Shown here piece by piece: positions 5,218 to 53,061 of a stretch of 64,000 nt of DNA. The stretch is from Candidatus Aminicenantes bacterium. Lineage in GTDB: Bacteria > Acidobacteriota > Aminicenantia > Aminicenantales > CAVYOD01. Location: assembly GCA_963701305.1 (NCBI GenBank), contig OY969586.1, positions 2,825,509-2,889,508 on the forward strand, in the 5' to 3' direction. Each line of letters starts with the position of its first letter. Position 1 is the stretch's first letter. The notes below the pieces were generated by a model. The model saw nothing but the letters and a program-made list of their open reading frames with translations, was not told the origin of the DNA and searched no databases. Position numbers and translations under genes: made by a program.

Positions 5218-5850
5218 ATGGCAAATCGAGCCAAATTCTGGCTGATCATTTTTGTCCTCCTCTCGGCCTTTGTCCGGCCCGCACTGGCGATCCTGAAAAA
5301 AGGGGAGAAATTCCTTCCATTCTCCCTCAAAGGGATCGACGAAAAAACCTACACCGTCAAGATGGAAGGCGGGAGACTTACGGTCCTCGTCGAGTTTCAA
5401 AAGGAGGGGAGGAGGGAAGTCGAGAAGTCCCTCCCGGGGGCTGTTCTGATCGATTTTTGGGCGACCTGGTGCGTGCCGTGCCGGACGGCCATGCCTTACC
5501 TGGAAAAACTCTATGAGCGCTATCAACCCAAGCCGGGCCAGGAGGCAGGCGGACTTTTGCTCTTCGGGATAGGTCTTGATCAAAAGGGATCGAAGGTCAT
5601 AAGGCCCTTCTATGAGAAGCTCAAGATCACATATCCGATGCTTTCCGACCCGTCGGAGGGGGCCGAGAGCGACGACCTGCTGCGCACGACGAGAGGGATG
5701 TCGACGAAATACGGAGTTCAGGAGATCCCGGTCGTTTATCTCATCGACTCCAAAGGAATCATCGATCATGCCCATATCGGGTTCAAGAAAGAAGAAATGA
5801 GCGACCTCGAAAGAACGGTCCAATCGTTGATCAAGGAAGGCACGAAATGA
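5218..5850 (+). CDS. TlpA/ResA-like periplasmic thiol-disulfide oxidoreductase (thioredoxin fold, WCxPC)
   Basis: An N-terminal signal anchor (MANRAKFWLIIFVLLSAFVRPALA) is followed by the active site FWATWCVPCRTAMPYLEKLYERY. Its stop codon overlaps the next start (ATGA). Confidence 0.8.
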   Translation: MANRAKFWLIIFVLLSAFVRPALAILKKGEKFLPFSLKGIDEKTYTVKMEGGRLTVLVEFQKEGRREVEKSLPGAVLIDFWATWCVPCRTAMPYLEKLYERYQPKPGQEAGGLLLFGIGLDQKGSKVIRPFYEKLKITYPMLSDPSEGAESDDLLRTTRGMSTKYGVQEIPVVYLIDSKGIIDHAHIGFKKEEMSDLERTVQSLIKEGTK

Positions 5851-25659: not shown

Positions 25660-28560
25660 TCAATCGACATCCACCGTCGACGCGGGTTCGCCGTGCAGAA
25701 CAAACGCGGCCCAATAAAACGGATGGGAATACCTTGATCTGAGCATACCGAGCTTGGCCAGACGAAGGGCTTGAGCTTGGTCATTTCTTTGCGAAAGACG
25801 ATGATAAAAATCGCCCATAAACCTGGCTGTGGCTTTGTCGCTAATTTCCCAGAGGGTCGAAAGCACGGACCTGGCTCCGGAAAAGAAAAAACTCCTGGTC
25901 AAGCCCAGAATTCCTTCTCCTCGCTCATCATACCCCCTGCTGGTCTGGCAGGCTGAGAGCACAACCAGCTCGGCAGCCAATCGAAGATTGGAAATTTCGC
26001 GAACCTGCAGGAAACCATCCTCGCCTGATCTTTCATCCGAAGATAAAACGAGGGCGGACCGAAAAGGTATTTTTTCGTCGAGGAAACCGTGGCAAGCGAA
26101 ATGAATAACCTGGTAGTCCTCTAAACTAAGCTTTTTTATGGTCTCTTCGGCGGCTTCCTTCCCCAGATAGACGGACCGGTTGTTTTTCGAAAAATAGCGA
26201 GAGACATTCTTGATCTCCTGGGCGCTATGGGCGAGGGGAGAAAAGTCGAATCCTTGACCCCGATAAGTCTCTTTCATAATATTGGCCAGACTAATTTTGC
26301 CCTTCTTTCCCGACGAAACATCCGAGGCGTCTAACGCATCCCCGAAAGCTAAGAGGCCCCGAGGATACCGATTTTCCTTCTTTTTCTCCTTCAAAACCAG
26401 AAGCGATGAACAGGAAGAGCCGTAAGATACGATGTACTTTGAAATCAACAATTCCCCGCCGCAGGTTTGATCTCGGAGGAGAGGAAGCGTCTCGAAAGGG
26501 AGGCCAAACAGCGAACCGTCGGGAATGATGATCAAACGGTCGATCCCCTCAGGCAGGTTATTCAGGGCCGAAAAAAGAAGGCCGCGTGACAAGCGTTCCG
26601 CCGCCGGGGCCCCTTTCCATCTTCCTTTAGGAGGGTCGGAGAGGAGCTTCACGTAGGCGCTGATCGAATTTTCGATTTCGGTCCGCGGGGGAAGAGGGAA
26701 AATCATGAATTTGTTTCTGGCCATGGAAATAAGAAGAGAGCCGTTCTCGCCAAGGAAGTATTCGAGGATTGCGGTTTTCTCATCCAGGAGACGTTCCTGA
26801 ACCTGTTTCACTCGAAGGGGAAGGGGAAGGATGACGTTTGCGACGTCGGGCTCCCCGGCGCTCATTCTCGGGTCGAGCGCGAGGTATTCATCTTCAAGCC
26901 GCTTGAGCGTCCTCTGAAGCTCCACGAGCCTGCTCTGGGGCAAATCTCCTGCGGACATTTCGCGAATAACGGCGGAAATACGGCTTGATATCTCATCTTC
27001 TTTCTTCTTCAGGGACGGTTCCGAGGTGCGCCGGCTAGCTTCCCTTGGTTCGCCCAGGCTCTCTAGGAAAGACCTGGCTTTCGCCCTTTCGACGAGACGG
27101 AAGATCTCTTCTTCTTTGCCCGGAGAGACATCTTTTGCGCGAAGTCTGGACAAAAGGTCGATGGCTGACTCATAAACTCTGAATTTGTTTTTCCCAAACC
27201 CCACTTTGTAATAATCAGATGGAATTCGACTTCTCTGAAAATCAATTGTGTCCATAGAACTTTCGTAGCAAGCCATCGCCTGATCATACGCTTGGCTTTT
27301 TTCGTAACACTGTCCGAGGTGGAACAAAGGTTCCCAGAGGAGCCTGGGAGAGACTTTTTCGTCCGCGCTCTGAAGGGCCTTCCGAAAATACGTTTGCGCT
27401 TTTTCGCTATCTCCCGTCTTGAGGGAGCAATTTCCCAAATTGATGAAGATTTCTGCGAGTGCCTCGTGGGCGCCGTTTTTTTCGGCGAGCTCGTAGGCTG
27501 ATTGGAGATAACTTTTTGCCGTATGATAATAGGTCAGATCGAGGTAAGTGTTGCCGACGTTATTGAGGGCCTGTAGCTCAGCCCATGGATCTGCCTTGCT
27601 TCTGGCCGAATCGAGCGCCTCGTTGAAATAGGTCAGCGCTTGATAAAGATCCGATTTGCCGGAAAAAATAAGTCCTTTGTTTCGAAAGCCCTCGCCAAGA
27701 GCGTTGAGATCCTGCGGAAGGGAAACGGTATTTCCCAATCGCAGGTCGATTTCATGTCCCGACAACAGGTAATCTAACGACCTCTCGTAGAGGCCGAACT
27801 GAATTAAGATAAGACCTATGTTTTTTAAGCAAAAGGACTCGTATTCTTTTTTCGAGATGTTGCTGGAAAGGTCCCTCGCCTCGGAATAATTGTTGAGAGC
27901 TTTAGAGTAGTCACCAGAATTGAGATAATAATAGCCAATGTTCATTAGAGATTTGGCTTGTTCCAACCGATCGTTCGATTCTTGGGCAGCTTGAAGGGAC
28001 CGCTGATTGGCCAAGAGAAAGCCACCCAGATCGTGCCTTGCCAGATGCGTCAAGCTCAATTGGCGAAGGCATCTGACTTCGTGCTCCCGGCTTCCGATCG
28101 TTTTGGCCAATTTGACGGCCGAATCGAAATTCTCAACCGATCTGTCATATTTGCCGGCGAGACGATCCTCTTTGCCTCGAGAATAGAGCTCCCAGATCTT
28201 GATGGCCGCCTGGCATTCTTTCATCTCTCTTTTAAAATTGAGGTCCTTCGCGCGCGAAAAGGCGTCTGAGTAAAACTTCAGGGAATCTTCAGGTCGCCCG
28301 CCGGCCCAGCACAATTTTCCCAGAAGCATCGAACACTGGACTTCGTTCTTCGCGTCTTTCATGCTTCGCGCCAGCCCGAGCGCCTGATTCAGCAAATCTG
28401 AGGACTCCTGGATATTTCCCTCTCTCCACCGGGATTCGGCTGATTTGAAAACCTTGATATATTGCTCGAGGGGGCTTTCCGGCTTTCCGGCGGCCGGGTT
28501 TTGGCCGAACGAAAAATGGAGTGCAATGAGGATTTCCAAAAGGATTACCGATAACCTCAT
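25660..28560 (-). CDS. Secreted TPR-repeat plus CHAT-domain (caspase-like) protease
   Basis: This is ORF 25660..28635 with the likely start MRLSVILLEILIALHFSFGQNP (signal peptide). The N-terminal two-thirds is TPR-like (many AxxxYxxA/LG repeats). The C-terminal CHAT domain carries the His/Cys dyad (IHFACHGFLD ... VVLSACQTSRGY). Confidence 0.8.
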   Translation of the reverse strand: MRLSVILLEILIALHFSFGQNPAAGKPESPLEQYIKVFKSAESRWREGNIQESSDLLNQALGLARSMKDAKNEVQCSMLLGKLCWAGGRPEDSLKFYSDAFSRAKDLNFKREMKECQAAIKIWELYSRGKEDRLAGKYDRSVENFDSAVKLAKTIGSREHEVRCLRQLSLTHLARHDLGGFLLANQRSLQAAQESNDRLEQAKSLMNIGYYYLNSGDYSKALNNYSEARDLSSNISKKEYESFCLKNIGLILIQFGLYERSLDYLLSGHEIDLRLGNTVSLPQDLNALGEGFRNKGLIFSGKSDLYQALTYFNEALDSARSKADPWAELQALNNVGNTYLDLTYYHTAKSYLQSAYELAEKNGAHEALAEIFINLGNCSLKTGDSEKAQTYFRKALQSADEKVSPRLLWEPLFHLGQCYEKSQAYDQAMACYESSMDTIDFQRSRIPSDYYKVGFGKNKFRVYESAIDLLSRLRAKDVSPGKEEEIFRLVERAKARSFLESLGEPREASRRTSEPSLKKKEDEISSRISAVIREMSAGDLPQSRLVELQRTLKRLEDEYLALDPRMSAGEPDVANVILPLPLRVKQVQERLLDEKTAILEYFLGENGSLLISMARNKFMIFPLPPRTEIENSISAYVKLLSDPPKGRWKGAPAAERLSRGLLFSALNNLPEGIDRLIIIPDGSLFGLPFETLPLLRDQTCGGELLISKYIVSYGSSCSSLLVLKEKKKENRYPRGLLAFGDALDASDVSSGKKGKISLANIMKETYRGQGFDFSPLAHSAQEIKNVSRYFSKNNRSVYLGKEAAEETIKKLSLEDYQVIHFACHGFLDEKIPFRSALVLSSDERSGEDGFLQVREISNLRLAAELVVLSACQTSRGYDERGEGILGLTRSFFFSGARSVLSTLWEISDKATARFMGDFYHRLSQRNDQAQALRLAKLGMLRSRYSHPFYWAAFVLHGEPASTVDVD

Positions 28561-28784
28561 TCTTAGACACCGGCGCTCGGTGTTTACGCTGGGAAGGTGC
28601 TTGAAAAGGGGAACTCGTAATCTCATTGTTACCATTATACTCGAATTTTGCTCTGCAATCGTATTTCCGGCACAGATACCCAGGATGAGAAAAAAACCAG
28701 ATTTCGATCGTCTAATATTATGAGGACGGAGTGTATTTGGTTCTTTCGATGAATCGAACGACTCCTCGATTTTAGCTCCAGCAT

Positions 28785-32132: not shown

Positions 32133-32430
32133 GAATAAATGAAGATTCATGGCCTGCCTTAAGTCGAGGCCGCCAGGCAGCGGCTGGCCGGGCGTTTAAA
32201 TAGCCAATTCCCTGCGACGATACTGATCTCCTCCTCCATCGGTGTGTATGCTGGTCTCTTGGATCTTCTCCTGTTTGATGCAGGGCTGGTGGACCTCCAT
32301 AAATGCGATGGCATTTTGGCGAAAATCCTGATATACATACATTCGGCAATTATCTGCCGGCATGGAATTGAAAAACTGCATAATTCATGATCTGCCGGAG
32401 AAAAATAACCAAATCAGGGAGGAGGAAGAA

Positions 32431-32901
32431 ATGGAATTAAGGCGGAAGCAGATACCAATGCGGCAAAAGGCGTATTTCGAGCAAAAACTGCAAGATCGAC
32501 TGGCTTTCCTGTCTGGGAAGGGGATCGAATCTCCCAAGGCCGACAAAGATACTCTCGTTAGAAAATTGCAGGCAAGAATCAGGGCCGTGAATAATAGGCT
32601 GAGGCTGATTGACGACCACGAAAAGAGAACGGAAGAAATAGCGAAGATAAAGGCCGAAAGGGCGGCAGCCCCCAAGAAAGAAAAAGAAGGCGGCAAAGGA
32701 GAGAAGCCCAAGAAAGCCCCCGAAGAGGGCAAGGGAAAAAAGATAAAGGCGGAAAGGGCGGCAGCGTCTCAGAAAGCGCCGGAAGGCGGCAAAAGCCAGA
32801 AGACGACGGAATCCTCCGAAGAAGGCAAGCCAACAATGAAAAAGAAAGAGGAAGAAACGAGGGAGGAACCGGCAGGCCAGGTGAAGGCAGATAAACAATA
32901 A
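32431..32901 (+). CDS. Lysine/glutamate-rich protein with tandem KIKAERAAA...EGGK repeats (histone H1-like low complexity)
   Basis: This is ORF 32362..32901 with the probable start MELRRKQIPMRQ after RBS gggaggagg. A nucleotide tandem repeat of about 105 bp gives KIKAERAAAPKKEKEGGKGEKPKKAPEEGKGK twice. Confidence 0.4.
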   Translation: MELRRKQIPMRQKAYFEQKLQDRLAFLSGKGIESPKADKDTLVRKLQARIRAVNNRLRLIDDHEKRTEEIAKIKAERAAAPKKEKEGGKGEKPKKAPEEGKGKKIKAERAAASQKAPEGGKSQKTTESSEEGKPTMKKKEEETREEPAGQVKADKQ

Positions 32902-35179: not shown

Positions 35180-35326
35180 AAGCAGATCTTCTCCCGTGTG
35201 CCAACAGTGTGACAAAATCGATTGAAAAGCGCTGAAAATTAGGGTTTCGGATTGAAAGACAAAAAAGAGGCTCGTGCTTGCCGAGCATGATGCAAGTTGC
35301 TTAAAATCAAGAGCATTAGGGGCTGG
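35180..35326. repeat. Diverged direct repeat (about 85% over about 80 nt, then patchy) of the selC downstream flank; the second copy is at 37128..37261
   Basis: tctcccgtgtgccaacagtgtgacaaaatcgattgaaaagcgctgaaaattagggtttcggattgaaagacaaaaaagagg aligns with tctccccgtgtgccaacagtgtgccaaaaccgattgaaaagcgcagaaaattacggtttcgggttgaaagacaaaaataggg. Confidence 0.6.
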
Positions 35327-35390
35327 CGGGAAGGTATGGGAGTCGAACCCATCCGGGACTTTTGAAGGCCACATACTGGATTTGAAGTCC
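35327..35390 (-). repeat. Partial 3' copy (about 64 nt, from the anticodon stem through the discriminator) of tRNA-Sec, an att-like direct repeat of selC
   Basis: ggaaggtatgggagtcgaacccatccgggacttttgaaggccacatactggatttgaagtcc is identical to 37263..37326 apart from one mismatch. Homology to the tRNA stops at 35390, so the 5' half (acceptor 5' strand and D arm) is absent. Confidence 0.65.
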
Positions 35391-35512
35391 CGGGAAAGCT
35401 GGCAATCGTGTCGGTCCGATTCTCTCCCAGAGCGCCGGACGTCCCATGATTACAAGTATTTACCCTGATTGCAAAACTGCGTCTTAACAGTAATACTTTA
35501 ATTTCATCCTCA

Positions 35513-36394
35513 CTATTTCTCGAACATTCCCTTCGGCGTTTTTCCCTGCAAGAAAGGTTCGATATAAGAATGCAGCAGGTCGGTCTGCGTGATAACGGCG
35601 GTGTGCGAGGTCGCCGGCAGAACAGCGAGGCGCGAGGCGGGCAGCGGCTTCCCCATGTCGCCCATAGCGCCGCCGCCGAGCAGCCGGAACATCGCAACCG
35701 AATGTTCGAGAGTCACAACGTCGGCGTCGCCGGTGATGATCAGCACCGGAGTCTTCATCGCCCTTCACATCTTTTTCCCACGCCATCGGTTCGTGCTCGA
35801 GCTGCGATCAGTTTTTTGACCAGTGCGGGAAAGCCTTCGGGATTGGCAGCGAGTTTGCGATATTCTTCTACCATCGTCGGCATACCGACGAACATCTCCA
35901 CCGTCATCTGCGGGATGAATGCCTTGAATTCCGGCTGCCAGCCCTCTCATCGTATGCAACGGAAGCCGCGACAAGCTTATTCACCTTTTCCGGGTGGCGG
36001 ATAGCGAGTTGCAGCCCGGCCGCAGCACCCATGGAATAACCGAACACGTCGGCTTTCGCGAGACCTACCGCGTCCATGAAGGCGCCACGTCGTCCGCAAG
36101 GTTGGGATAGGTGATGGGGCGGTCGATGTCAGTGGTGCGGCCGTGGCCCTGGAATTCGAGCGCATAGACCTTATGCGTCTTGGCGAGCGTGGGGATGATG
36201 GCACCCATGGTCGGGATATTCATGTAGGCACCGTGCAGCACGATCAACGGGTCCCCTGTGCCGGAAACTTCGTAATACATTTTCATTCCGTTCACAGTTG
36301 TGTATCCGCTCTTCGGTTGAGCGACTGCGGCGATACTTACGGCGATGCATAACAACGCAATCGCTGTCACAATATTGAAATTCTTTCTGAGCAT
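35513..36394 (-). pseudogene. Alpha/beta hydrolase (signal peptide, GxSxG, C-terminal lid) degraded by four or more frameshifts
   Basis: The N-terminal ORF 36065..36394 reads MLRKNF...LIVLHGAYMNIPTMGAIIPTLAKTHKVYALEFQGHGRTTD. The C-terminal ORF 35513..35758 reads MKTPVLIITGDADVV...ATSHTAVITQTD. By hand translation the middle is readable only by switching frames (MDAVGLAKADVFGYSMGAAAGLQLAIRHPEKVNKLVAASVAYDE / GWQPEFKAFIPQMTVEMFVGMPTMVEEYRKLAANPEGFPALVKKLIAARARTDGVGK). The indels are in mixed contexts. Confidence 0.7.
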
Positions 36395-36405
36395 TTTTAT
36401 CTTCC

Positions 36406-36999
36406 TTATGAAGTTTTATCTTTACGATAGTGAAGCACAACAACGCCCGATTTGAATTTTTTTGTATCGATAAGTTTCAGATTATTCTTTTCGTTCACAT
36501 CGGGGAACAGCCGCTTACCTTTCTTCCAGATGAGCGGTTGCACTGCGAGCCAGTATTCATCAATTAAGCCATGCCTCATGATCTCCTGAAAAACGGTTAT
36601 TCCGCCTACCGAAATGTTCTTACCCGGCCGCTGCTTAAGTTTGACAACTTCTTCTATCACATTGTCTCTCACTATTCTCGTATTGTTCCAATCTGTCTTC
36701 TGAAGTGTTCGTGAAAAGACAATCTTGGGTATTGCGTTAAACTTATCGGCGAATTTGATCATGCTCTTTGTCGCTTGAGGATCGTTATGAGCACTAGGCC
36801 AGTAGCTTTCCATCAGCTGATATGTTACGCGTCCGAACAACAGTGTGTCCACATTGTCCAATAAATTCGCATAGAAGTCATGCAACTCATCATCCGCAAT
36901 TGTCACAGTATGATCAGCGTAGCCGTCAACTGTTACATTGATCGCAAAGATCACTTTTCTTTCCTTGCAAACGGCGTTCTTAATGTTATTTATATTCAT
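36406..36999 (-). CDS. Dihydrofolate-reductase-like protein (RibD C-terminal domain family, YwjB-like)
   Basis: VIFAINVTVDGYADHTVTIADDELHDFY...LLFGRVTYQLMESYW...NISVGGITVFQEIMRHGLIDEYWLAVQPLIWKKGKRLF. It is very AT-rich (about 38% GC). Confidence 0.75.
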   Translation of the reverse strand: MNINNIKNAVCKERKVIFAINVTVDGYADHTVTIADDELHDFYANLLDNVDTLLFGRVTYQLMESYWPSAHNDPQATKSMIKFADKFNAIPKIVFSRTLQKTDWNNTRIVRDNVIEEVVKLKQRPGKNISVGGITVFQEIMRHGLIDEYWLAVQPLIWKKGKRLFPDVNEKNNLKLIDTKKFKSGVVVLHYRKDKTS

Positions 37000-37127
37000 C
37001 TGAAAGATTAAGCCCGCTATCGGTATGAGTATAGAAGGTATTATATAACGTTCTTTTTCAAAATGCTAAGTGTTCTCATCATGAGATCCTCCACGGCTTT
37101 CAATAGGTTAATCTCAATAGACCTCTC

Positions 37128-37261
37128 CCCGTGTGCCAACAGTGTGCCAAAACCGATTGAAAAGCGCAGAAAATTACGGTTTCGGGTTGAAAGACAAAAA
37201 TAGGGTTATGCCGGGTCGAGCATGATGTAACTCTCTGATAATTAAGGAAGATAAGGGGGAG
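37128..37261. repeat. Second copy of the selC downstream flank repeat (partner of 35180..35326)
   Basis: See the feature at 35180..35326. Confidence 0.6.
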
Positions 37262-37354
37262 CGGGAAGGTATGGGAGTCGAACCCATCCGGGACTTTTGA
37301 AGGCCCCATACTGGATTTGAAGTCCAGAAGGCCCACCGGGACCTTGACCCTCCC
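37262..37354 (-). tRNA. selC: tRNA-Sec (anticodon UCA), 93 nt without an encoded CCA
   Basis: I folded it by hand from the reverse complement. The acceptor stem is 8 bp (GGGAGGGT/ACCTTCCC with one G-U). The D stem is 6 bp with a 4-nt loop (AGGTCC-CGGT-GGGCCT). The anticodon arm is CTGGA-CU-UCA-AA-TCCAG. The long variable arm is GGGGC-CTTCAAAA-GTCCC. The T arm is 5 bp (ATGGG-TTCGACT-CCCAT). The discriminator is G. The 8/5 acceptor/T geometry, the 6-bp D stem with 4-nt loop and G73 are the bacterial tRNA-Sec signature. It lies immediately downstream of selB. Confidence 0.8.
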
Positions 37355-37358
37355 GCGG

Positions 37359-39275
37359 CTATCTTAGCACATGCCGGTCTTCGATTCTCTTGGTCAGGCC
37401 GATTCTGTCGAAATATTCCAGGATGGCCTGGCCATATTTGCGCGAAATCCTGAGGCTGTCCCTCAGTTCAGCAATGGTGATGCTTTTGTGCTTTTGCAGG
37501 TGATTGAGGACGAGCGTGCGCGCCGACTCGAGCGCATCCCGGTGATAGGTTACCTTGGCCGAAAGCCGGACGAGATTTCCCCGCTGGATGAGGCTCCCGA
37601 CGATGCTTTTAAACAGGGCCGGCTTCAGGTCGAGCTGTTTCTCAACTTCTTCCTCGAGCGGGCTTTCATACCGGGTGCTCCTGTAAATTTGCTCTATCCT
37701 GTCGGCCGCCTCCTGATCTTTGGGCCTGAACTTGGCTTCGTGGCCGACAAGCCCGACTCCCGCCTCCTTCTTCAAAAGCAGATTTTTCCGGAATAAGTCC
37801 TCGAGGACGACTTTGAAAACCAGGGAATCGCTCGTCTTCAGAAGATGTGAGCGCAGGTCGGCTGCGGGCATGAAAAGACGATGCGGATAAGTCTCGAAGT
37901 ATTCGCGGGCCGCGGAAAGCAGGTTTTCGCCCAGCTTTGCATAAACATTGTGGTGGATGTACATTCCGTCTGGATCGGCCGCCAATGGAACGAGTTTTCC
38001 CTGCCCAACCAGCTTATCAATCGCCTCCTTAACATCGCTCACGTTCTTTCCGGCGCGTATGGCCACGTCTTGTGCGCTCTGGGGGCGGAATCCAGCTTTG
38101 AAAAATATCTGCTCGACAAACTCTCCCAGGCTCCCCTCGAGCTTCTTAAGTGCTTCTATGGCTAGAGGATCCTCTCTCTTGTGTTTTTCGGGCGCGCCTT
38201 CAAGAATTATCCCGCCTCCGATCGTCGTGAGCGGCGAAAACGAGCGGATAACGAAGCGGTCGCCCGGCAAAGCGACAGTCGGAGCCTCGCAGATGAATTG
38301 GGCCAATGAGGACTCTCCCGGCTGCACGGATCTTTTTTCGAGCAGCACCAGCCGGGCGATGACTTCGTCGGTCCCGATATGGAGGCGGATCCTCTCCCGG
38401 TTTCTCAGCTCCCGGCCGTAGCTCTTGAGGAGGTTCAGGCGGGCATCCAACCGGATCGTGGCCAATAGAGATTTGGGAGCCGCGGCGACCTGGCCCCGAC
38501 GGAGAAGCTCTTTATTTATATCCTGGAGGTTGATCGCGGTGCGCTTCCCAAGACCGGAATATTCTTCCTTTTCATTGTGGACCTGGATGCCTCGGACTCG
38601 GACTTCGAGACTCTCCGGATAGATTTCGAGGGCGTCTCCCACCCTGACCTCCCCGGAGAGAATGGTCCCGGCGATGACGGTGCCGAATCCACGGATAGAG
38701 AAAATCCGGTCGATAGGCATCCGAAAGACGCCGCTATCCGCCCGTTTTTTGATTCGCCGGCCGAGAGCGATGAGCTCAGCCTTGATTTCATTGATTCCCT
38801 GGCGGCTCACCGAGGATACCGGGACAATCGGCGCGCCCTCGAGAAATGTTCCCCTGACGAGATCTTTAATCTTAAAGGTCAGCTCGAGTATCTGATCCTG
38901 GTTCACCAAGTCCGCCTTTGTCAGCGCGACGATTCCGAGATTGACTCCCAGGAGCTGCAGGATATCGAAATGCTCGCGGGTCTGGACGCAGATCCCTTCG
39001 TCTGCCGCGATGACCAGCATGACGGCGTCTATGGAGCTGGCGCCGGCGGCCATCGTCTTGATGAATTTTTCGTGGCCGGGGACATCGATGAAAACAATCT
39101 GTTTCTCGTAGTCCGGGGCCTCTAAGAAGACAAACCCCAGCTCGATCGTCAGGCCGCGCTCTTTTTCCTCGGGGAGGGTGTCAGGATCGATCCCGGTCAA
39201 GGCCTTGACGAGCGAGGACTTGCCGTGGTCAATGTGTCCCGCCGTCCCGACGATGACGTGTTCTTTTCCTGACAT
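37359..39275 (-). CDS. selB: Selenocysteine-specific elongation factor SelB
   Basis: The GTPase motifs are [19 protein letters not shown] and TKADL. Domains II and III are followed by a long C-terminal winged-helix extension (638 aa). It sits between selD and selC. Confidence 0.9.
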
Positions 39276-39294: not shown

Positions 39295-40485
39295 TTATTT
39301 TTTGAGCCTGATTTTGCCTTTGGATTTTGCCGTGATTCTGCCCACGACGGCCGCCCGCCCGACGCCGCGTCTCAGCAACTCTCTTAGCAGGGCTTTCGAC
39401 TTTTTCTCTTCGATGGCCATGAGAAGCCCGCCCGAGGTCTGTGGGTCATAAAGGATCGTTTCCATGTCGTCGCTGACGTCTTTCGCCCTCTGGATGAACT
39501 GGGCCGAATACTCACGGTTACGTTCTATCGCGCCCGAAATAAGTCCTTCCCTCACCAATTCGAGTACTCCCGCAAAGAGGGGGATATTGCCCGCCTGGAC
39601 CTCTGCCGTAACGCCGCTCTGGCAGACGATCTCACTCAGGTGTCCGGCGAGCCCGAAGCCTGTTACGTCCGTAGCCGTGCGGACGCCCATTTTGACCATG
39701 ACCTCTGCGGCGGCCTTGTTGAGCTCGGTCATGGATCGTTCGGCTTCGCGCAATCCCTCCTCCGGCGCCCTGCACAGTTGCCGGGCAAAGCTCAATATCC
39801 CGGTCCCGATAGGCTTGGTCAAGACGAGGAGGTCTCCGGGTTTGGCCGTATCATTGGTGATAATCCGGGCTGGATTGATGGTCCCCGTGACGGCAAAACC
39901 AAACTTGATCTCTTTGTCCTTGATGCTGTGGCCACCGAGCAAGGCTACCCCCGCTTCTTTCAGCTTATCGATCCCGCCTTGGAGCATCTTGTTCATGATG
40001 CGGTGGCTCAGCTTTTCGATCGGAAAGGCGATGATGGAGAGGGCGGTGAGCGGTTTCCCGCCCATCGCGTAGATGTCGCTCACGGAATTGGCGGCGGCGA
40101 TCTGGCCGAATATATAGGGGTCGTCGACGACCGGGGTGAAGACGTCGACCGACTGGACGAGGGCCATCCGGCTCGAGATCTTGAAGACTCCGGCATCGTC
40201 GCAGGTGCTGGCGCTCACCAGGACCCGGGGATCAAAAATCTCGGGGAGACCGGCCAGGGCTTTTTTCAGGTCTTCCTGGCTGATCTTGGAAGCGCAGCCG
40301 GCGTTCTCGACCAGCCCGGTCAGATGGACTTCTTCGACGGCCTCTTCTTCCCGTTCCCCGGAGCAGAGGCAGATATTTTTCTGTTTGAAGAGGTCGCATG
40401 GGCAGGGCTCTTTGGGGTTGCAGATGCAGTGACCGAGCTTGATCGAGCGGCCCATGATGCGCTTGCGCTTCTGGTAATCGATCAT
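39295..40485 (-). CDS. selD: Selenophosphate synthetase SelD (Cys-type) with an N-terminal Cys-rich extension of about 45 aa
   Basis: The PurM-like core has the active-site [10 protein letters not shown] (aligns to E. coli GAGCGCKIS), DDAGV and AMGGKP. The N-terminal extension is [23 protein letters not shown]. Confidence 0.85.
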
Positions 40486-40500
40486 CGTCCGATTCCCTCT

Positions 40501-41907
40501 CTACGGGCCGAGGATCTCCAGAATCGCCTTCTCAACCAAGACGTCTTCCTCGGGCTGGATTGTCCGCAAATCGAAGAGGACATAATCTTTATAAACCCTG
40601 GCAAAAACAGGCGGCTCGTGAAAGCGGAGGCCTCTGGCCAGCGCATCCACTGAGATGTCCAACGGCCTTACGGCCAGCACTTTAGTGGGGATCGTTTCTA
40701 TGGGGACGGATCCGCTTCCTACCTGGGATCCGCTGTCCTCAATCGAAAATATCGCTTTTTCCGGAAGGACCTTGAGGAGCCTGACAGCAAGTTTCTTGGC
40801 CCGCCGCTCCAGTTCTTTAGGACTCGAGGAAAGCATCCGGTAGAGCGGATGGGTTTCGTTGATTTTCTCGAGGTTTAAGAACAACTTAAGCGTGGCCTCC
40901 ATGGCCGCAATCGTTAGCTTCCCGACCCGAAAGGCCCGCATCAAGGGGTTTTTTTTGATCTGCGAAACGACAGCGGCCCGGCCGACGATTATTCCCGACT
41001 GAGGGCCGCCGATGAGCTTATCACCCGAGAAACAGGCAACGTCGACGCCGGCCGCAAGGCTTGTGTGGACCAGCGGTTCGGCCTCGAGACCGTAGCCTTT
41101 GAGGTCAATCAGGGCGCCGCTGCCCAGGTCGTCGATGACCGGCACCTGGTGTTTTTTTGCGAGCTCAACCAGCTCTCCGATCCCAGGTTCTTCGGCAAAG
41201 CCCACGATCCTGTAGTTACTGTGATGGACACGCATAATGGCGCCGGTGCGCTCGCTGATGGCAGATTCGTAATCGCGGAGGTGAGTTTTGTTGGTCGCTC
41301 CCACTTCCCGGAGAATCGCCCCCGATGTGGCCATGACTTCGGGCATCCGGAAAGACCCGCCGATTTCGACGAGCTGTCCTCGGGAGAGAATGACTTCCTT
41401 TCCTTTGGCCAGGGTGTTAAGGATCAGGACCGTCGCCGCGGCGTTGTTGTTGACGACGACGGCTGCCTCGGCTCCGGTCAGTTCGCAGAGAAGCCCGGCG
41501 ACATGGCTGTAACGGTCGCCGCGCCGCCCTGTTTCGCGGTCGATGGCCAGATTGCAGTACCCGTCACTGATCAGTGCGAGCGCCTGCGCCGCCTCCCTGG
41601 AGAGAACCGCCCGTCCCAATCCCGAATGCATCAGAATGCCTGTCGCGTTGATCACTTTTCGCAGCGATGGCGCCATTCTCGCTTCGAGGTCAAGCCGGAG
41701 CTTCGCGGTCACGCTCTCAAGAGCCAGGTCATCTTCTACGACGGAGGGGGATGCATCTTTCAAAATCTTTGCCCTCAGCTCGTCAATCGCGGCGCGCGCC
41801 CGGCGGAGCACCGCCTCACGTCCATAGGTCTCTATGAGGGCAGCGGCGTCCGGATGGGCGAGGAGGGCGTCCACGGAAGGTAGTTTTCGTAAAAGCTCCT
41901 TGTTCAA
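40501..41907 (-). CDS. selA: L-seryl-tRNA(Sec) selenium transferase SelA
   Basis: 468 aa. The PLP-fold core has NATGILMHSGLGRA...NNNAAAT...GDKLIGGPQ. It is the first gene of the selA-selD-selB-selC array. Confidence 0.9.
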   Translation of the reverse strand: MNKELLRKLPSVDALLAHPDAAALIETYGREAVLRRARAAIDELRAKILKDASPSVVEDDLALESVTAKLRLDLEARMAPSLRKVINATGILMHSGLGRAVLSREAAQALALISDGYCNLAIDRETGRRGDRYSHVAGLLCELTGAEAAVVVNNNAAATVLILNTLAKGKEVILSRGQLVEIGGSFRMPEVMATSGAILREVGATNKTHLRDYESAISERTGAIMRVHHSNYRIVGFAEEPGIGELVELAKKHQVPVIDDLGSGALIDLKGYGLEAEPLVHTSLAAGVDVACFSGDKLIGGPQSGIIVGRAAVVSQIKKNPLMRAFRVGKLTIAAMEATLKLFLNLEKINETHPLYRMLSSSPKELERRAKKLAVRLLKVLPEKAIFSIEDSGSQVGSGSVPIETIPTKVLAVRPLDISVDALARGLRFHEPPVFARVYKDYVLFDLRTIQPEEDVLVEKAILEILGP

Positions 41908-42629: not shown

Positions 42630-42738
42630 GGGACGTTCCCCAAGGGGACACCCTTGATGATCTAGAGCTCGCCATTTGAGCTTCCAGGGATGGAAAGGTT
42701 CTCAAGAGACGAAGGGTGTCCCCTTGGGGAACGTCCCC
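42630..42738. repeat. Long imperfect inverted repeat (26-nt arms, about 56-nt spacer) in the promoter-proximal intergenic region
   Basis: gggacgttccccaaggggacaccctt ... aagggtgtccccttggggaacgtccc. Each arm also holds an internal tcccc-aa-gggga mini-palindrome. Confidence 0.5.
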
Positions 42739-44424: not shown

Positions 44425-45846
44425 ATGGCTTTTCGCTTCCCTCGCTTGACGGAAGAACAATCGCGCAGGATCTGTTGGGCGAGTCTCGAAATCCTCGAGC
44501 GGGTGGGAGTTCGTCTGTTTCTGGATGAGGCGATTGACCTGCTCAAGAAGGCGGGGGCGAGGGTTACGGATGGAAATCTGGTCCATCTGCCTTCTCATCT
44601 CATCGAGAAAGCCCTCTCGACAGTTCCCAAAAAAATCGTCCTCTTTGACCGCTACCACTATCCCGGTATGCCCGTCGAGGGGGACAACTGTTTCTACGGT
44701 CCCGGCTCCGATTGCCTGAATGTCGTTGACCTGCGCACCGGAATCCGCCGAAAGCCCATTCTGAACGACGTGAGGGCGGGCCTGGCGCTCTGCGACGCCC
44801 TGCTCAACATCGATTTTGTCATGTCCCTGCTCTTGCCCATTGATGTGAACACGTCCATCGCAGATCGATACCAGATGGAGGCGATGTTAAATTCAACGAT
44901 CAAACCGATCATTTTTGGGACCCGCGATTTCGAAGGCTGTGTCGATTGCGTCGAAATGGCTGAGTTGGTGGCCGGGGGAGAGGAGGCGCTCAGGGAAAAG
45001 CCATTTGTCGCCTGCCACATAAGTGTCGCGTCCGGCCTCCGGCACAATAAGGAGGGACTCGAAAAACTTCTTTACCTGGCCTCAAAAAATCTTCCCGTAC
45101 TCTACATCCCCTCTTCGACCGCCGGAGTCGCGAGCCCGAGCACGCCGGCCGGTTCCATCGCTCTGGATTATGCCGGGGTCTTCGTGGGGTTGACGCTGGC
45201 CCAACTGAAACGGGAGGGCACGCCCGTCATTGTCACCGGCATGCCGCCGGGCCATCTAGACATGAAAACCCTTGTCTCTCCCCGCTCCGAGCCGGAGAGG
45301 GGGACGACAGAAGCCCTGAGTCATTTTTACAAGCTCCCGATGTTTTCGGTTGGCGGCGCTTCCGAATCCAAAATCGTGGACCAGCAGGCGGCCGCAGAGG
45401 CGGCTCTGAGCCTTCTCGTGGAAACGCTGGCCGGGGCGAACATCATCCATGACCTCGGGTGTCTGGAGTCCGGACTCGCTTTTTCTCTGTCCCAACTGGC
45501 CATCTGTGATGAGATCGTGAGCTGGATCAAAGCCTTTGGCCGCGATATCGAGGTCGACGACGAGGCCCTGGCCCTGGACGTCATCGCCGAGGTCGGCCCC
45601 GACGGACAATTCCTGCACACGGAGCACACGATCCGTCATTACCGGGAGAGATGGTATCCTGAGATTTTTGAACGAGAGACTCACGACGCCTGGATTCGCA
45701 GGGGAGGGAAGAGTCTTCTGGAGAGGGCCCAGGAGAGAGTGGAACACATCCTGGCCGACCGTAAGGTTGAAGAATTGCCTCGCGATATCAAGAAGAAGCT
45801 GCGAAAGATTATTCAGCGTGCCGAGAAAAAGGTTAAAAGACAATGA
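44425..45846 (+). CDS. MttB-superfamily (trimethylamine/quaternary-amine:corrinoid methyltransferase-like) protein, non-pyrrolysine
   Basis: 473 aa. RICWASLEILERVGVRLFLDEAIDLLKKAGARV is the typical MttB N-terminus, and the protein is TIM-barrel length. There is no in-frame TAG. Confidence 0.75.
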   Translation: MAFRFPRLTEEQSRRICWASLEILERVGVRLFLDEAIDLLKKAGARVTDGNLVHLPSHLIEKALSTVPKKIVLFDRYHYPGMPVEGDNCFYGPGSDCLNVVDLRTGIRRKPILNDVRAGLALCDALLNIDFVMSLLLPIDVNTSIADRYQMEAMLNSTIKPIIFGTRDFEGCVDCVEMAELVAGGEEALREKPFVACHISVASGLRHNKEGLEKLLYLASKNLPVLYIPSSTAGVASPSTPAGSIALDYAGVFVGLTLAQLKREGTPVIVTGMPPGHLDMKTLVSPRSEPERGTTEALSHFYKLPMFSVGGASESKIVDQQAAAEAALSLLVETLAGANIIHDLGCLESGLAFSLSQLAICDEIVSWIKAFGRDIEVDDEALALDVIAEVGPDGQFLHTEHTIRHYRERWYPEIFERETHDAWIRRGGKSLLERAQERVEHILADRKVEELPRDIKKKLRKIIQRAEKKVKRQ

Positions 45847-51621: not shown

Positions 51622-53061
51622 TCAGGATGTCTGTTCATACGCGGCCAGTACGTCGGCCATCTCCCGTCTGATGTCATCCGAAAGAGCCGGGGGCCGGTGG
51701 GTTTCCAATATCTGCTTTGTTTTCAATCGGGCCGCATCGACACGTGAGAGGGCGCCTTTCTTAGACCATTGATCATAACTGTCCCGATTGCTGAGGGTGG
51801 GAACGGACAAGGCAGAGCGCATATGCTCAACCGTATGCATCGTATCTATATAGACTCCGCCCGGGCCCAATTCTTTGATAATATCCAGAGCAAATGCGTC
51901 ATCGCTCAGGTCGACTTCCGATAGGAGCCGTCGCACGGTCGCTCCGATCTCTGCGTCAAGCACGAGCCCCTCATAGGTGAGCAGGTTTGATCCGTCCAAA
52001 AGGCCCAGCCCGAAGAGAAGGTCGGCGCCGGCGAGGGAATTGAGGAGAAAAGAGAAAGCGTGTTCCCAGGCCGATTGGGGTCCCAGATCTTTGGACATGG
52101 TGGCGCCGGAGCCGACGATCGAAGGCAGATTATAAAAGTTGGCCATCTCTGCGACCATGAGCCTCAGCCAGAGGGCCTCCGGCGAGCTTGAGGTATAGTT
52201 TCCCGTCGGAAGATCCATCGTCGCCGGACCGCCGGCATAAAAGATCTTGCACCCGGGCACCGCGATCTGGAGGAGCGCCAGGCCGCAGATCACTTCGGCG
52301 TTCAGCACCGCCATGGTCCCGGCCAACGTAACCGGAGAAGTCACCCCGGCTGTGGCCATACTGTACAAACCTGCGGGGATTCCCGCCCTGGCGAATTCTA
52401 GGGCGGCTCCAATGCCTCCCCGGTCCTGGGTCAACGGGGATATCGTGCAGATAACGTTGGTGAAAAGCGGCCGATGGCGCAGAGCATCTTTCCCCCCGGC
52501 AACGGCAGCCGCCAGGTCGATTTGCGAGCGCGCCTGGCGGGCATCGGAAACCGAAACGGTGATGACGTGTTTGCCGGAGTTGACAAAGCAGGCCTCCAAT
52601 TCATGTGCCGGGATGGCCCGCAGCGGCGCATCCTGGGCGCTCACCATCGGCGAGACGACATCTATCGTTTCGAGATAGTCGCCGATCAGCGCCATTTTTT
52701 CGACATCCTCTTTGCGCGACGAGCGCCTGGCTCCGGTCTGCGGATCGAGGGTGAGAGCGGAACATCCATCCTGGCAGAAATAAGTGTGCTCTCCGTCAAC
52801 GGTCAGATCGTGCTTTCCGTCGCGGGAATATAAGGCCAGACTGGGGGGGGCCTTTTTCAGCGCCTGCACGATCACATCACCATTGACGCGGACCAGGTGG
52901 CCGTCGATCTTCGCCCCGCATCCGTGCCAAATTTCGAGGGCCTCATTGGAATGGAACCTGATGCCGCAGCTCTCGATGATGTCGAGAGAGGACTGGTGGA
53001 TTTTTTTTAGGATCGCTTCGTCATGGCGAAAGAAACCCATGGACTGCAAGGCGCGTTTCAT
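51622..53061 (-). CDS. Second MttB-superfamily methyltransferase paralog
   Basis: 479 aa. ILKKIHQSSLDIIESCGIRFHSNEALEIWHGCGAKI is the MttB-type N-terminus. It is collinear with the first copy. Confidence 0.75.
   Translation of the reverse strand: MKRALQSMGFFRHDEAILKKIHQSSLDIIESCGIRFHSNEALEIWHGCGAKIDGHLVRVNGDVIVQALKKAPPSLALYSRDGKHDLTVDGEHTYFCQDGCSALTLDPQTGARRSSRKEDVEKMALIGDYLETIDVVSPMVSAQDAPLRAIPAHELEACFVNSGKHVITVSVSDARQARSQIDLAAAVAGGKDALRHRPLFTNVICTISPLTQDRGGIGAALEFARAGIPAGLYSMATAGVTSPVTLAGTMAVLNAEVICGLALLQIAVPGCKIFYAGGPATMDLPTGNYTSSSPEALWLRLMVAEMANFYNLPSIVGSGATMSKDLGPQSAWEHAFSFLLNSLAGADLLFGLGLLDGSNLLTYEGLVLDAEIGATVRRLLSEVDLSDDAFALDIIKELGPGGVYIDTMHTVEHMRSALSVPTLSNRDSYDQWSKKGALSRVDAARLKTKQILETHRPPALSDDIRREMADVLAAYEQTS

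Follow-up and report, generated by a model that had tools for sequence, protein, structure and literature searches.

A probable integrase-less islet beside the tRNA-Sec gene of a Candidatus Aminicenantes bacterium, and the flank module at its junctions

The enterobacterial islands inserted at selC, the gene for tRNA-Sec, include LEE, SHI-2 and PAI-I of UPEC. In phage HP1, attP has extended homology to the 3' end of a tRNA operon of its host. Other systems gather cargo in different ways: the CIMEs of Streptococcus are cis-mobilizable elements without an integrase, and integrons combine the IntI integrase and an attI site with folded attC sites that carry a GTTRRRY box. Genomic islands that use tyrosine integrases to enter tRNA and tmRNA genes have been catalogued by Islander and TIGER (PMC4383910, PMC12424338). 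Site-specific accretion at one att site is described for phage-ICE tandems (PMC13651849). Work on tycheposons and on islands beside tRNA genes in Prochlorococcus reports partial tRNA copies left by successive integrations, degenerate remnants and defence or adaptive cargo (bioRxiv 10.1101/2020.12.28.424599).

Here we analyse a 64,000-nt stretch of a Candidatus Aminicenantes chromosome (contig OY969586.1, positions 2,825,509 to 2,889,508; hereafter the window), in which a tRNA-Sec gene, a repeat of its 3' part and an insert between the two copies are confirmed. We consider it more likely than not that this locus is a small integrase-less islet that was inserted at tRNA-Sec by an integrase-type mechanism involving a flank module. 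It is a known kind of locus, and it adds one tRNA-side islet to those on record, here beside tRNA-Sec and in an uncultured phylum about which little is known. The module at its junctions is unusual and unexplained.

ARAGORN called a single tRNA in the window, a tRNA-SeC with anticodon TCA, and the same gene scored 71.9 bits against the Rfam model RF01852 (gathering score 47). It folds into a cloverleaf with a long acceptor and a long variable arm; the minimum-free-energy structure has an acceptor stem of 8 bp, a long D stem, a variable-arm stem of 5 bp and a T stem of 5 bp. The tRNA callers thus accept the Sec fold that the initial annotation had placed at 37262..37354, with the end of the gene moved by one base to 37261. 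CCA is not encoded, and the discriminator is followed by CTC. The gene starts 4 nt after selB and closes an operon with the order selA-selD-selB. Because both the gene and its displaced fragment lie on the minus strand, "downstream" of either means lower coordinates.

The 3' part of the tRNA gene and the DNA downstream of it form a direct repeat of 207 nt (35184-35390 and 37119-37325, ungapped identity 82%) with a period of 1935 nt, and 1728 nt of unique DNA separates the copies. We refer to the copy at the intact tRNA gene as copy T and to the copy with the displaced fragment as copy F. Subpatterns of the repeat gave 2 matches in the window, compared with 0.00 expected from 100 shuffles. The tRNA parts (35326-35390 and 37261-37325) agree at 64 of 65 positions, from base 3 of the anticodon stem through to the discriminator, which bears out the recurrence of a tRNA-Sec 3' fragment with one mismatch reported at the outset. 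This mismatch, a G to T change in the displaced fragment, disrupts one pair of the variable-arm stem; the fragment reaches a sub-threshold 36 bits with Rfam and is not called by ARAGORN. Its start at the anticodon stem presumably places the locus in the anticodon-loop sublocation class of tRNA islands. The homology does extend about 140 nt into the flank, as had been proposed, but not at a uniform identity of about 85%: over the whole 141-nt flank, copies T and F are 75% identical without gaps, with 56% over the first 59 nt rising to 93% over the 73 nt that follow. With the intact tRNA-Sec and the displaced 3' fragment at opposite ends, the geometry is attL/attR-like, as first suggested.

Table 1 Features of the tRNA-Sec locus (coordinates in the window)
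Feature	Position	Strand	Basis and remarks
selA	40501-41907	minus	sel operon upstream of tRNA-Sec
selD	39295-40485	minus	sel operon upstream of tRNA-Sec
selB	37359..39275	minus	Pfam GTP_EFTU, SelB-wing_3, Beta-barrel_SelB; last protein gene before tRNA-Sec
tRNA-Sec, complete, anticodon UCA	37261..37354	minus	ARAGORN, Rfam, cloverleaf fold, sequence
Repeat copy T	37119..37325	minus	tRNA-Sec 3' 65 nt 37261-37325, spacer 37201-37260, proximal block 37153-37200; repeat search, alignment, family models
Copy T core, TTTTGGCACACTGTTGGCACACGGGGAGAGGTCT	37119-37152	minus	repeat alignment, family models
Sigma-70-like promoter candidate, TTAGCA-N18-TATAAT	37040..37069	minus	consensus scan 10/12; consensus match only
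Cargo gene 1, RibD_C/dihydrofolate-reductase family, intact	36406..36999	minus	Pfam PF01872, E 3.8e-15
Cargo gene 2, secreted alpha/beta-fold hydrolase	35513..36394	minus	three-frame translation, tblastn
Unique 122 nt, hydrolase stop to tRNA fragment	35391..35512	minus	element-side arm if the classical model holds
Displaced tRNA-Sec 3' fragment	35326..35390	minus	from anticodon stem position 3 through the discriminator; CCA follows
Copy F flank	35184..35325	minus	spacer, proximal block 35218-35265, core
Terminator-like hairpin in copy F spacer (a T run comes in addition)	35270-35286	minus	sequence
Copy F core, TTTTGTCACACTGTTGGCACACGGGAGAAGATCT	35184-35217	minus	repeat alignment
First gene after copy F, 459 aa	33746..35125	minus	ORF list; DGGY-type repeats, signal-like N-terminus

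In the closest relative (SelB 89% identical; 90.7% nucleotide identity over 3049 gap-free nt), three contigs (L045, L046 and L124) each have one tRNA-Sec followed by one flank, and neither the fragment nor the RibD_C and hydrolase genes. These two genes are therefore an insertion in the window. The initial annotation had raised an ancestral tandem duplication as an alternative, and synteny in these single-copy, cargo-free contigs showed none. One could still suppose that the tRNA-Sec 3' region and flank were duplicated in tandem long ago, that unrelated DNA entered between the copies later and that the duplication has since been lost from the sampled relatives. This would account for derived characters (CCGAAACC and CACACTG) that the blocks of copies T and F share and that the relative's tRNA-Sec flank lacks. 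The copies do not fit a single duplication age, however, because their spacers are 56–64% identical while their tRNA parts reach 98%; moreover, none of the three relative contigs has more than one copy, and this architecture is met again beside other tRNAs, where the cargo is different. We regard this history as very improbable.

The locus resembles the islands catalogued by Islander in having an intact tRNA gene at one end, a 3' fragment as a direct repeat at the other, foreign cargo and an insert-free relative. It differs from them in lacking an integrase, in its size of 1.7 kb and in a repeat that runs about 140 nt past the tRNA into a flank found at multiple loci. With the enterobacterial selC islands it shares the tRNA-Sec target and the 3'-end insertion geometry; host phylum and cargo differ, their P4-type integrase is absent from the window and there is no sequence relationship. 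The 3' insertion geometry of the selC hotspot invoked in the initial annotation is thus found here, but the enterobacterial comparison is only an analogy because the host is Ca. Aminicenantes.

The cargo is foreign in composition and phylogeny. The only ORFs between the repeats are those of the RibD_C protein and the hydrolase, which lie 11 nt apart, and the unique non-coding DNA of the insert amounts to just 122 nt plus 119 nt. The GC content is 41% in the RibD_C gene, 57% in the hydrolase gene and 54% in the window. The AT-rich RibD_C reductase had been recognized from the start (its GC content was then put at about 38%), and its Pfam match supports this identity. Apart from the protein itself, its best homologues share about 71% identity with it, at most 72%, and come from other phyla, with names from Bacteroidota, Ignavibacteriales, Kryptoniota and further groups. 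The promoter candidate lies in AT-rich DNA upstream of this gene.

The hydrolase gene is broken in the assembly by four 1-nt indels, two deletions and two insertions (near 36083, 35948, 35806 and 35766), in agreement with the four or more frameshifts first described. Stitched over three frames, the protein has no in-frame stop and is 80–86% identical to hydrolases of the Rhizobiales (Bradyrhizobium, Rhizobium and Ensifer), which shows cross-phylum acquisition by an Aminicenantes genome. An independent Logan contig (ERR15459715, 1255 bp) encodes an identical RibD_C protein followed by a hydrolase ORF that is open for at least 170 aa and continues past the first two frameshift sites, and it confirms that the T flank, the RibD_C gene and the hydrolase gene lie next to one another. 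Assembly errors or differences between strains may account for the frameshifts. Of the "fossil" element originally proposed, the missing integrase stands and the decay is uncertain. Because this apparent decay may be an assembly artefact, claims of fossil elements in long-read MAGs call for read-level checks.

The same doubt can be extended to the locus as a whole: a long-read assembler might have joined two strain variants in tandem, with the hydrolase indels as consensus errors at poor coverage. The source is one 4.07-Mb contig, probably assembled from long reads, and the four indels fall within 320 nt, whereas 3049 nt of the sel operon align without gaps to an independent JGI contig; the open hydrolase ORF of the Logan contig adds to this suspicion. 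In a related MAG, two contigs both break at tRNA-Sec, which would suit such an artefact and also fits a variable hotspot. But joining through a shared repeat would not set the left edge of the duplication at the anticodon stem, the fragment-plus-flank architecture is also present in independent JGI metagenome contigs, and the Logan contig confirms the adjacency of T flank, RibD_C and hydrolase. We give an artefact of this kind hardly any credence.

No integrase was found among the 39 ORF translations of the window searched against Pfam, and integrase remnants were not found in the window either, so the absence noted earlier holds. The search also covered the surroundings of other copies of the flank, described below. 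Among about 20 ORFs adjoining them we found no integrase or recombinase, and the roughly 14 contigs that bear the flank family held no autonomous or integrase-bearing relative of the presumed element. Recombinase, replication and packaging hallmark genes were absent both from the window and from beside the other family copies, and the core of the flank had no match in IMG/VR viral contigs.

The islet insertion that we favour would have proceeded as follows. A circular DNA would have carried the 3' part of a tRNA-Sec gene from the anticodon stem onward, a flank module of about 140 nt and the cargo, that is, the low-GC RibD_C gene with its own putative promoter and a secreted alpha/beta hydrolase of alphaproteobacterial type. 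This circle would have recombined with the chromosomal tRNA-Sec in the anticodon-loop region, in the manner of the tyrosine integrases of tRNA-targeting islands, and an integrase would have mediated the crossover. A functional tRNA would have been rebuilt at the copy T end, and the 65-nt tRNA fragment with its own flank would have been left at the copy F end. The recombinase would have acted in trans or been lost, since it is not in the islet. The flank, homologous at both ends, would be a standard module of the tRNA-side islets of this lineage. Phage HP1 offers a parallel, in that the element-borne copy runs past the tRNA and rebuilds the gene together with the DNA downstream, and the homology is long and imperfect. 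HP1, however, is a complete phage with an integrase, and here the extension is a repeat family with many loci. The unique 122-nt segment next to the fragment is 20% identical, in register, to the 5' half of the tRNA and has no significant match to the flank family models.

The flank is one of a family with at least 15 copies in related sediment contigs, all in the same orientation and all 3' of a tRNA or tRNA fragment. Nine tRNA types are adjoined (Sec, Leu, Gln, His, Met, Glu, Val, Asp and Ala). A short 20-mer matched at least 120 metagenome loci, mostly by chance, and at least about 14 contigs, chosen by the core motif itself, carry the family. Each module opens with a T-rich spacer, continues with a proximal block and closes with a near-invariant core of 36 nt (TTTTGKCACAC-NG-TTGGCACAC-GGGGAG). 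Within the core, two TTGGCACAC repeats stand 11 nt apart and are followed by GGGGAG-N-GTCT; similarity between copies ends directly after GGTCT. The genes beside the family copies include TA modules, a ResIII/SNF2 helicase, an AlwI endonuclease and an SMC/AAA_21 protein.

The family flank follows both full tRNAs and fragments truncated at the anticodon stem. Apart from the Sec fragment, nine truncated tRNAs with this flank start at the anticodon stem, among them Val, Gln and Asp (contig L117), Ala (L127), Met and Leu (L148) and Glu (L158 and L113), and the identity of the Leu fragment starts at the same stem position as that of the Sec fragment. Several contigs hold mixed arrays: a full Leu followed by the Val, Gln and Asp fragments in L117, the Met and Leu fragments in L148, and a full Glu followed by the Ala fragment in L127. 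Such arrays are not the product expected of repeated integration at a single tRNA; they point to recombination within the flank.

The blocks of copies T and F are 93% identical to the flank of a tRNA-His and 71–74% identical to the relative's tRNA-Sec flank, and block subtypes are independent of tRNA type. The family is present beside the tRNA-Sec of contig L063, which is only 74% identical to that of the window, and absent beside the closer tRNA-Secs of L005 (85%) and L041 (81%). This patchy distribution and the independence of subtypes from tRNA type fit a mobile or recombining module. They also bear on the proposal in the initial annotation that the element had brought its own selC 3' end and flank from a related donor, which does not hold for a multi-copy family at many tRNA types. 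Because the copies are many and their blocks do not follow selC or host phylogeny, the flank more likely belongs as a standard part to the junction or att module of the family than stems from a single capture of donor selC flank.

What the core does is most plausibly to serve as the putative protein-binding arm of an att site. RNAalifold found 0 conserved pairs in 15 flank copies, so the constraint acts on primary sequence, and a structured RNA is ruled out; Rfam gave only weak tRNA-like matches where a tRNA fragment follows the core. A sigma-54 promoter, which requires GG at -24 and GC at -12 without exception, was also considered for TGGCAC-N5-TTGGCA in the core and rejected, as 7 of the 15 copies, including F, have TGTCAC and lack the -24 GG.

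Recombination within the flank raises the question of whether homology alone could have built the locus, by RecA-dependent Campbell-type insertion of a circle with fragment, flank and cargo through about 200 nt of homology in either the tRNA part or the flank block. The circle could have come from the tRNA-Sec hotspot of a related strain or from any flank-family unit. The 207-nt repeat, with its 73-nt block at 93% and its 65-nt tRNA part at 98%, offers such homology, no recombinase was found, and T, F and the relative's flank resemble one another in a mosaic pattern; the mixed arrays of L117, L148 and L127 would also arise more readily if flank copies recombined with each other. We nevertheless think this unlikely, as it leaves two features unexplained: the start of every truncated family tRNA at the anticodon stem, which is a signature of site-specific cutting, and the near-invariance of the 36-nt core across diverged copies.

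The core could instead be itself the recombination site of an undescribed, lineage-specific system of cassette accretion, integron-like in its logic, in which a recombinase encoded elsewhere would insert units of cargo, anticodon-stem-truncated tRNA and flank after a resident core. Several observations agree with this: similarity ends directly after the core; units lie head to tail, some of them lacking cargo, and their tRNA fragments differ; the pair of direct repeats 11 nt apart in the core recalls accessory recombinase-binding sites; and the cargo is typical of cassettes or defence islets. Integron arrays likewise have head-to-tail cargo units, a recurring site, direct repeats by the junction and closely packed genes of mixed origin, the two cargo genes of the window being just 11 nt from each other. 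Unlike them, the present loci have no IntI, no GTTRRRY box and, in line with the lack of a conserved hairpin or other secondary structure, no attC-like fold, and their sites contain tRNA fragments. No recombinase was found for such a system, and a GGGAGAG repeat flanking the cargo, tried as crossover site or target duplication, did not exceed chance (p 0.05-0.98, four loci). The pairing of a Sec fragment with a Sec gene, which classical tRNA integration predicts, would be a coincidence here. We judge a cassette system to be decidedly unlikely; if real, it would build small defence and accessory islets behind tRNA genes, with junctions that contain fragments of many tRNAs.

Cargo bounded by att-like repeats, the lack of an own recombinase and tandem units separated by att copies are also features of CIMEs and of phage-ICE accretion. 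In contrast to those, no cognate autonomous element is known here, and the arrays mix tRNA types. As in the tycheposon work, so far as its accessible part goes, variable islands adjoin tRNA genes and contain partial tRNA copies, degenerate remnants and defence or adaptive cargo, but the tyrosine recombinase and replication hallmark genes of tycheposons are absent from every locus examined here. That part of the source does not describe a conserved flank of about 95 nt with an invariant core for them (bioRxiv 10.1101/2020.12.28.424599).

Across the family, the junction module, beside which no integrase was found, stands with its unstructured 36-nt core at the edge of TA, restriction and other accessory genes. 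Should a dedicated recombinase bind or recombine DNA at this module, its sequence would be a simple handle for locating variable islets and delimiting them in Aminicenantes-like genomes, and it might reveal a new mode of stacking cargo behind tRNA genes.

Comparison with the relative leaves the polarity of the repeat ambiguous. In blastn against the flank of L045, copy F is 85.8% identical over 120 nt and copy T 78.1% over 137 nt. The spacer of copy F resembles that of the relative's tRNA-Sec, as does its encoded CCA, and the blocks of T and F are closest to each other. The encoded CCA is a weak marker of the native copy because the tRNA-Sec of L063 also lacks it.

The DNA beyond the flank also differs between the window and the three relative contigs. 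L045 has no homologue of the 459-aa gene, so the region beyond the flank is variable too; this gene has no significant match in Pfam or NCBIfam. A search of the rest of the window for signs of an older island end found neither another piece of tRNA-Sec nor another copy of the flank, and exact-protein look-ups with selB and the genes below copy F returned no record of strain variants with or without the insert. More distant Aminicenantes have no integrase at tRNA-Sec in their SelB neighbourhoods. The gene order DsbD_N-selA-selD-selB is kept in other Aminicenantes, and the core genes downstream are different in the more distant ones.

The only tRNA that ARAGORN called in the 64-kb window is a tRNA-SeC (UCA). 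It scores 71.9 bits in Rfam against a gathering score of 47, folds into a cloverleaf whose acceptor stem and variable arm are both long, and closes a selA-selD-selB operon at a distance of 4 nt from selB. A repeat search detected a direct repeat of 207 nt (82% ungapped identity), with copy T at the complete tRNA-Sec and copy F containing a displaced 3' fragment of it; its subpatterns matched twice in the window and not at all in shuffled sequence. Aligned in register, the tRNA parts are identical at 64 of 65 positions, and the single mismatch disrupts one stem pair of the variable arm. The fragment begins at base 3 of the anticodon stem, is not called by ARAGORN and reaches only 36 bits in Rfam. 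These results bear out the tRNA-Sec and the repeat of its 3' part described in the initial annotation, although tRNA, fragment and flanks all lie on the minus strand. The ~140 nt directly 3' of each tRNA part, which we call the flank, are homologous, as had been proposed, but the supposed identity of about 85% is strongly uneven: 56% over the first 59 nt beyond the tRNA part and 93% over the following 73 nt, with similarity lost within ~10 nt past that block.

Coordinates of features in the window and in related contigs (L-numbers); positions without a prefix refer to the window
Feature	Position	Strand	Details
tRNA-SeC (UCA)	37261-37354	minus	ARAGORN
Repeat copy T	37119-37325	minus	
Repeat copy F	35184-35390	minus	
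tRNA part of copy F	35326-35390	minus	
RibD_C-family ORF	36406-36999	minus	intact; Pfam E 3.8e-15
Alpha/beta hydrolase	35513-36394	minus	
Lysine/glutamate-rich ORF	32362-32901	plus	179 aa
MTTB-family gene	44425-45846		
MTTB-family gene	51622-53061		
TPR-CHAT protein	25660-28635		991 aa
REP-like palindrome	42630-42737; L045:4272-4302; L001 and L002 about 5460-5570		
Hairpin mini-element	L045:3052-3160; L046:2797-2905; L002:12018-12089; L063:1640-1765		two copies in L063
tRNA-fragment array	L117:2980-3895	minus	full tRNA-Leu(CAA), then Val, Gln and Asp fragments, flank copy after each, then DUF433/PIN_10 TA pair
tRNA-fragment array	L148:1370-4900		Met fragment, flank, 983-aa helicase, Leu fragment, flank, SNF2 gene
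tRNA-fragment array	L127:215-480		head-to-tail units of tRNA fragment and flank, mixed tRNAs
Tandem-core variant	L117:3500-3530; L117:3060-3090		

The unique DNA separating the repeat copies comprises 1,728 nt and two genes: a RibD_C-family reductase, preceded by a promoter-like TTAGCA-N18-TATAAT (consensus match), and an alpha/beta hydrolase. The hydrolase reading uses three frames. Comparison with a homologue places four single-base indels (two deletions, two insertions) within 320 nt, at about 36083, 35948, 35806 and 35766, none of them in a long homopolymer, and the stitched frames contain no stop codon. The stitched product of 295 aa shares 80–86% identity with hydrolases of 287 aa from Alphaproteobacteria such as Bradyrhizobium, Rhizobium and Ensifer, a family unusually conserved across that class and a myxobacterium. 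For RibD_C the best non-self matches are ~71% identical, and the few named ones come from Bacteroidota, Ignavibacteriales, Kryptoniota and one Thorarchaeota MAG. Because their nearest relatives differ (Rhizobiales at 80–86%, other phyla at ~71%), the two cargo genes have different foreign origins. The cargo is a tightly packed mosaic, the hydrolase (GC 57%) beginning 11 nt past RibD_C (GC 41%).

The initial annotation had taken the hydrolase frameshifts as decay. A 1,255-bp Logan contig (ERR15459715) carries an identical RibD_C and the same 11-nt gap, followed by an ORF that continues without a stop for at least 170 aa, until the contig ends, and so past the first two indel sites; the sel operon of the window aligns with that of a JGI metagenome contig over 3,049 nt with zero gaps. 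The four indels thus reflect either an inactivation that is specific to this strain and very recent, or an error in the local consensus.

SelB places the window, which belongs to a 4.07-Mb contig, in Ca. Aminicenantes. Database records cover just two close lineages. In the first, MAG MFD04408.bin.2.57 (SelB 91% identical to the window's), selB occurs on both of two contigs, L001 and L002 (CAVYOD010000016.1 and CAVYOD010000017.1), which terminate at tRNA-Sec or 72 nt beyond it. They have the appearance of two strain variants, with assembly breaking off at a tRNA-Sec hotspot; the variable-arm loops of their tRNAs differ (CAAAA versus AGAAA). The second population, hereafter the relative, has a SelB 89% identical and is represented by contigs L045 (8.7 kb), L046 and L124. 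In L045, tRNA-Sec is followed by a hairpin mini-element of ~110 nt, a single flank copy, an RHH/PemK toxin-antitoxin pair, an inverted and truncated flank copy, and a convergent tRNA-Leu(CAA). Since L045 contains no tRNA-Sec fragment, RibD_C or hydrolase, the RibD_C-hydrolase segment together with the second repeat copy is an insertion when compared with the closest relatives. Past the flank, the DNA of the window and that of L045 are completely different, and the site downstream of tRNA-Sec is therefore a hotspot. The hairpin mini-element, which lies between tRNA-Sec and flank in relatives and is absent from the window, is bounded by terminal inverted repeats of 12 nt (CCAAAGACGCTT/AAGCGTCTTTGG) and contains an inner stem (CCCCCCTTTG...CAAAGGGGG) with AGGGGGG behind it; the element folds with an MFE of -44 kcal/mol (z = -2.2).

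The flank proved to be the unexpected part of the locus. We recovered its family by scanning metagenomes with the tandem motif and then running nhmmer with models built from the copies. The initial annotation had the element carry its own selC 3' part plus flank from a related donor; this view changes, since the same flank occurs at many tRNAs in about 14 contigs among the matches listed, several of them from the JGI sample series that also gave the relative's contig. In these matches every copy adjoins the 3' end of a tRNA, complete or truncated, and its orientation does not vary. Full tRNAs bearing a flank are Sec, Leu(CAA), Gln, His and Glu; truncated ones are Val, Gln and Asp (contig L117), Ala (L127), Met and Leu (L148), and Glu (L158 and L113). 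Every truncated tRNA starts at the anticodon stem.

In alignment, the anatomy of the flank is constant: a T-rich spacer, a proximal block with the consensus TTTTTGTCTTTCAAYCC...GCGCTTTTCAATCGA, and a core, TTTTGKCACAC-NG-TTGGCACAC-GGGGAG-N-GTCT, right past which the similarity between copies ends. About 20 core positions are invariant in 15 copies, and the two TTGGCACAC repeats lie one helical turn apart. RNAalifold finds no conserved base pair in the flank, so it is the primary sequence that is constrained, as in a protein-binding site. A sigma-54 promoter fails as a reading of the core, because 7 of 15 copies have GT in place of the essential GG. In two L117 copies the tandem TTGGCACAC is replaced by a tandem TTGTCCCCAAA (or GTCCCTGTGGTGTCCCCAAA), which might indicate that the module has two specificity classes.

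The DNA 3' of the core consists of accessory genes: TA modules (L045, L117), a 983-aa ResIII/DEAD helicase and an SNF2 protein (L148), an AlwI endonuclease (L158), an SMC/AAA_21/ABC-3C-like protein (L063) and an ankyrin protein (L067). No integrase was found beside the family copies in any of these contigs. The distribution is patchy: a flank lies beside the tRNA-Sec of L063, which is only 74% identical to the window's, and is absent beside closer tRNA-Secs (85% and 81%). Subtypes agree with neither the tRNA type nor the host. The T and F blocks show 93% identity with the tRNA-His flank of L079 versus 71–74% with the relative's tRNA-Sec flank, which is itself 88% identical to the tRNA-Gln flank of L097. 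The spacer, unlike the blocks, is tRNA-type-specific: T, F and the relative have ACATCATGYTCGRC in common, and the Glu flanks of L127, L139 and L113 are mutually alike.

As to which copy is resident, the blastn match of the relative's flank with copy F is 85.8% over 120 nt, and that with copy T is 78.1% over 137 nt. Moreover, CCA is encoded after the discriminator in copy F, the relative and two distant Aminicenantes, where the complete window tRNA-Sec has CTC. As in the classical picture, copy F is thus probably displaced resident DNA, with the 3' part of the working tRNA borne by the element. The evidence is mosaic, though: across the 73-nt block the closest match of T is F and vice versa (93%), with common characters missing from the relative; some spacer and distal characters are common to T and the relative; and the L063 tRNA-Sec likewise has no encoded CCA.

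The best-supported reading is that the islet would be a small unit that integrated into tRNA-Sec, recombining site-specifically at the anticodon loop. Such a unit would bring with it both a tRNA 3' part and a flank module of its own, and for this reason the tRNA-Sec gene would be rebuilt on its entry; the recombinase would act in trans or have been lost later. This reading is favored because the fragment starts at the anticodon stem, as in all truncated tRNAs of the family, because the site is unoccupied in relatives, and because the cargo is foreign. Short duplicated sequences flanking the cargo did not exceed chance. The flank may be the family's standard junction module, most simply a putative att-site arm with tandem binding sites, in which case homologous flanks at both ends would need no special history. 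Long att homology past the tRNA has a precedent in phage HP1. The initial annotation was sound in observation and partly right in interpretation.

Against a site-specific unit stand the lack of any visible recombinase or autonomous relative and the arrays in L117, L148 and L127, which join fragments of different tRNAs, sometimes placing the next fragment only ~10–30 nt behind a core. Where a fragment follows closely behind a core, the two together score in Rfam as a pseudo-tRNA near the threshold (27–29 bits). Repeated integration into one tRNA cannot yield such mixed arrays. They could have arisen by homologous recombination between flank copies, for instance with deletion of a rebuilt tRNA, or by recombination at the core itself.

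The islet itself belongs to an ordinary kind; what is unusual is the host. With enterobacterial selC islands it has only the target gene in common. It resembles integrase-less cis-mobilizable elements, for which the cognate autonomous element is not known here; it has none of the hallmark genes of tycheposons, and the IntI and attC features of integrons are missing. It works like the tRNA-integrated islands catalogued in Islander (PMC4383910) but lacks the integrase that is a criterion for them. The same likeness and the same difference apply to the tRNA-side islands of Prochlorococcus, in which one integration after another leaves behind partial copies of tRNAs as well as degenerate remnants (bioRxiv 10.1101/2020.12.28.424599).

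Elsewhere in the window, two MTTB-family (trimethylamine methyltransferase-like) genes lie less than 7 kb apart, and a TPR-CHAT protein adjoins an ECF sigma factor pair; neither is related to the islet. The lysine/glutamate-rich protein has internal KAERAAAP...GGKxxK repeats and no family match, and its ORF shows an extreme AT skew (up to 0.69). Between a DsbD_N gene and a beta-lactamase-family gene sits a REP-like palindrome with 26-nt arms (GGGACGTTCCCCAAGGGGACACCCTT and its complement) and a ~55-nt loop; identical copies of its arms lie beside tRNA-Leu in the relative.
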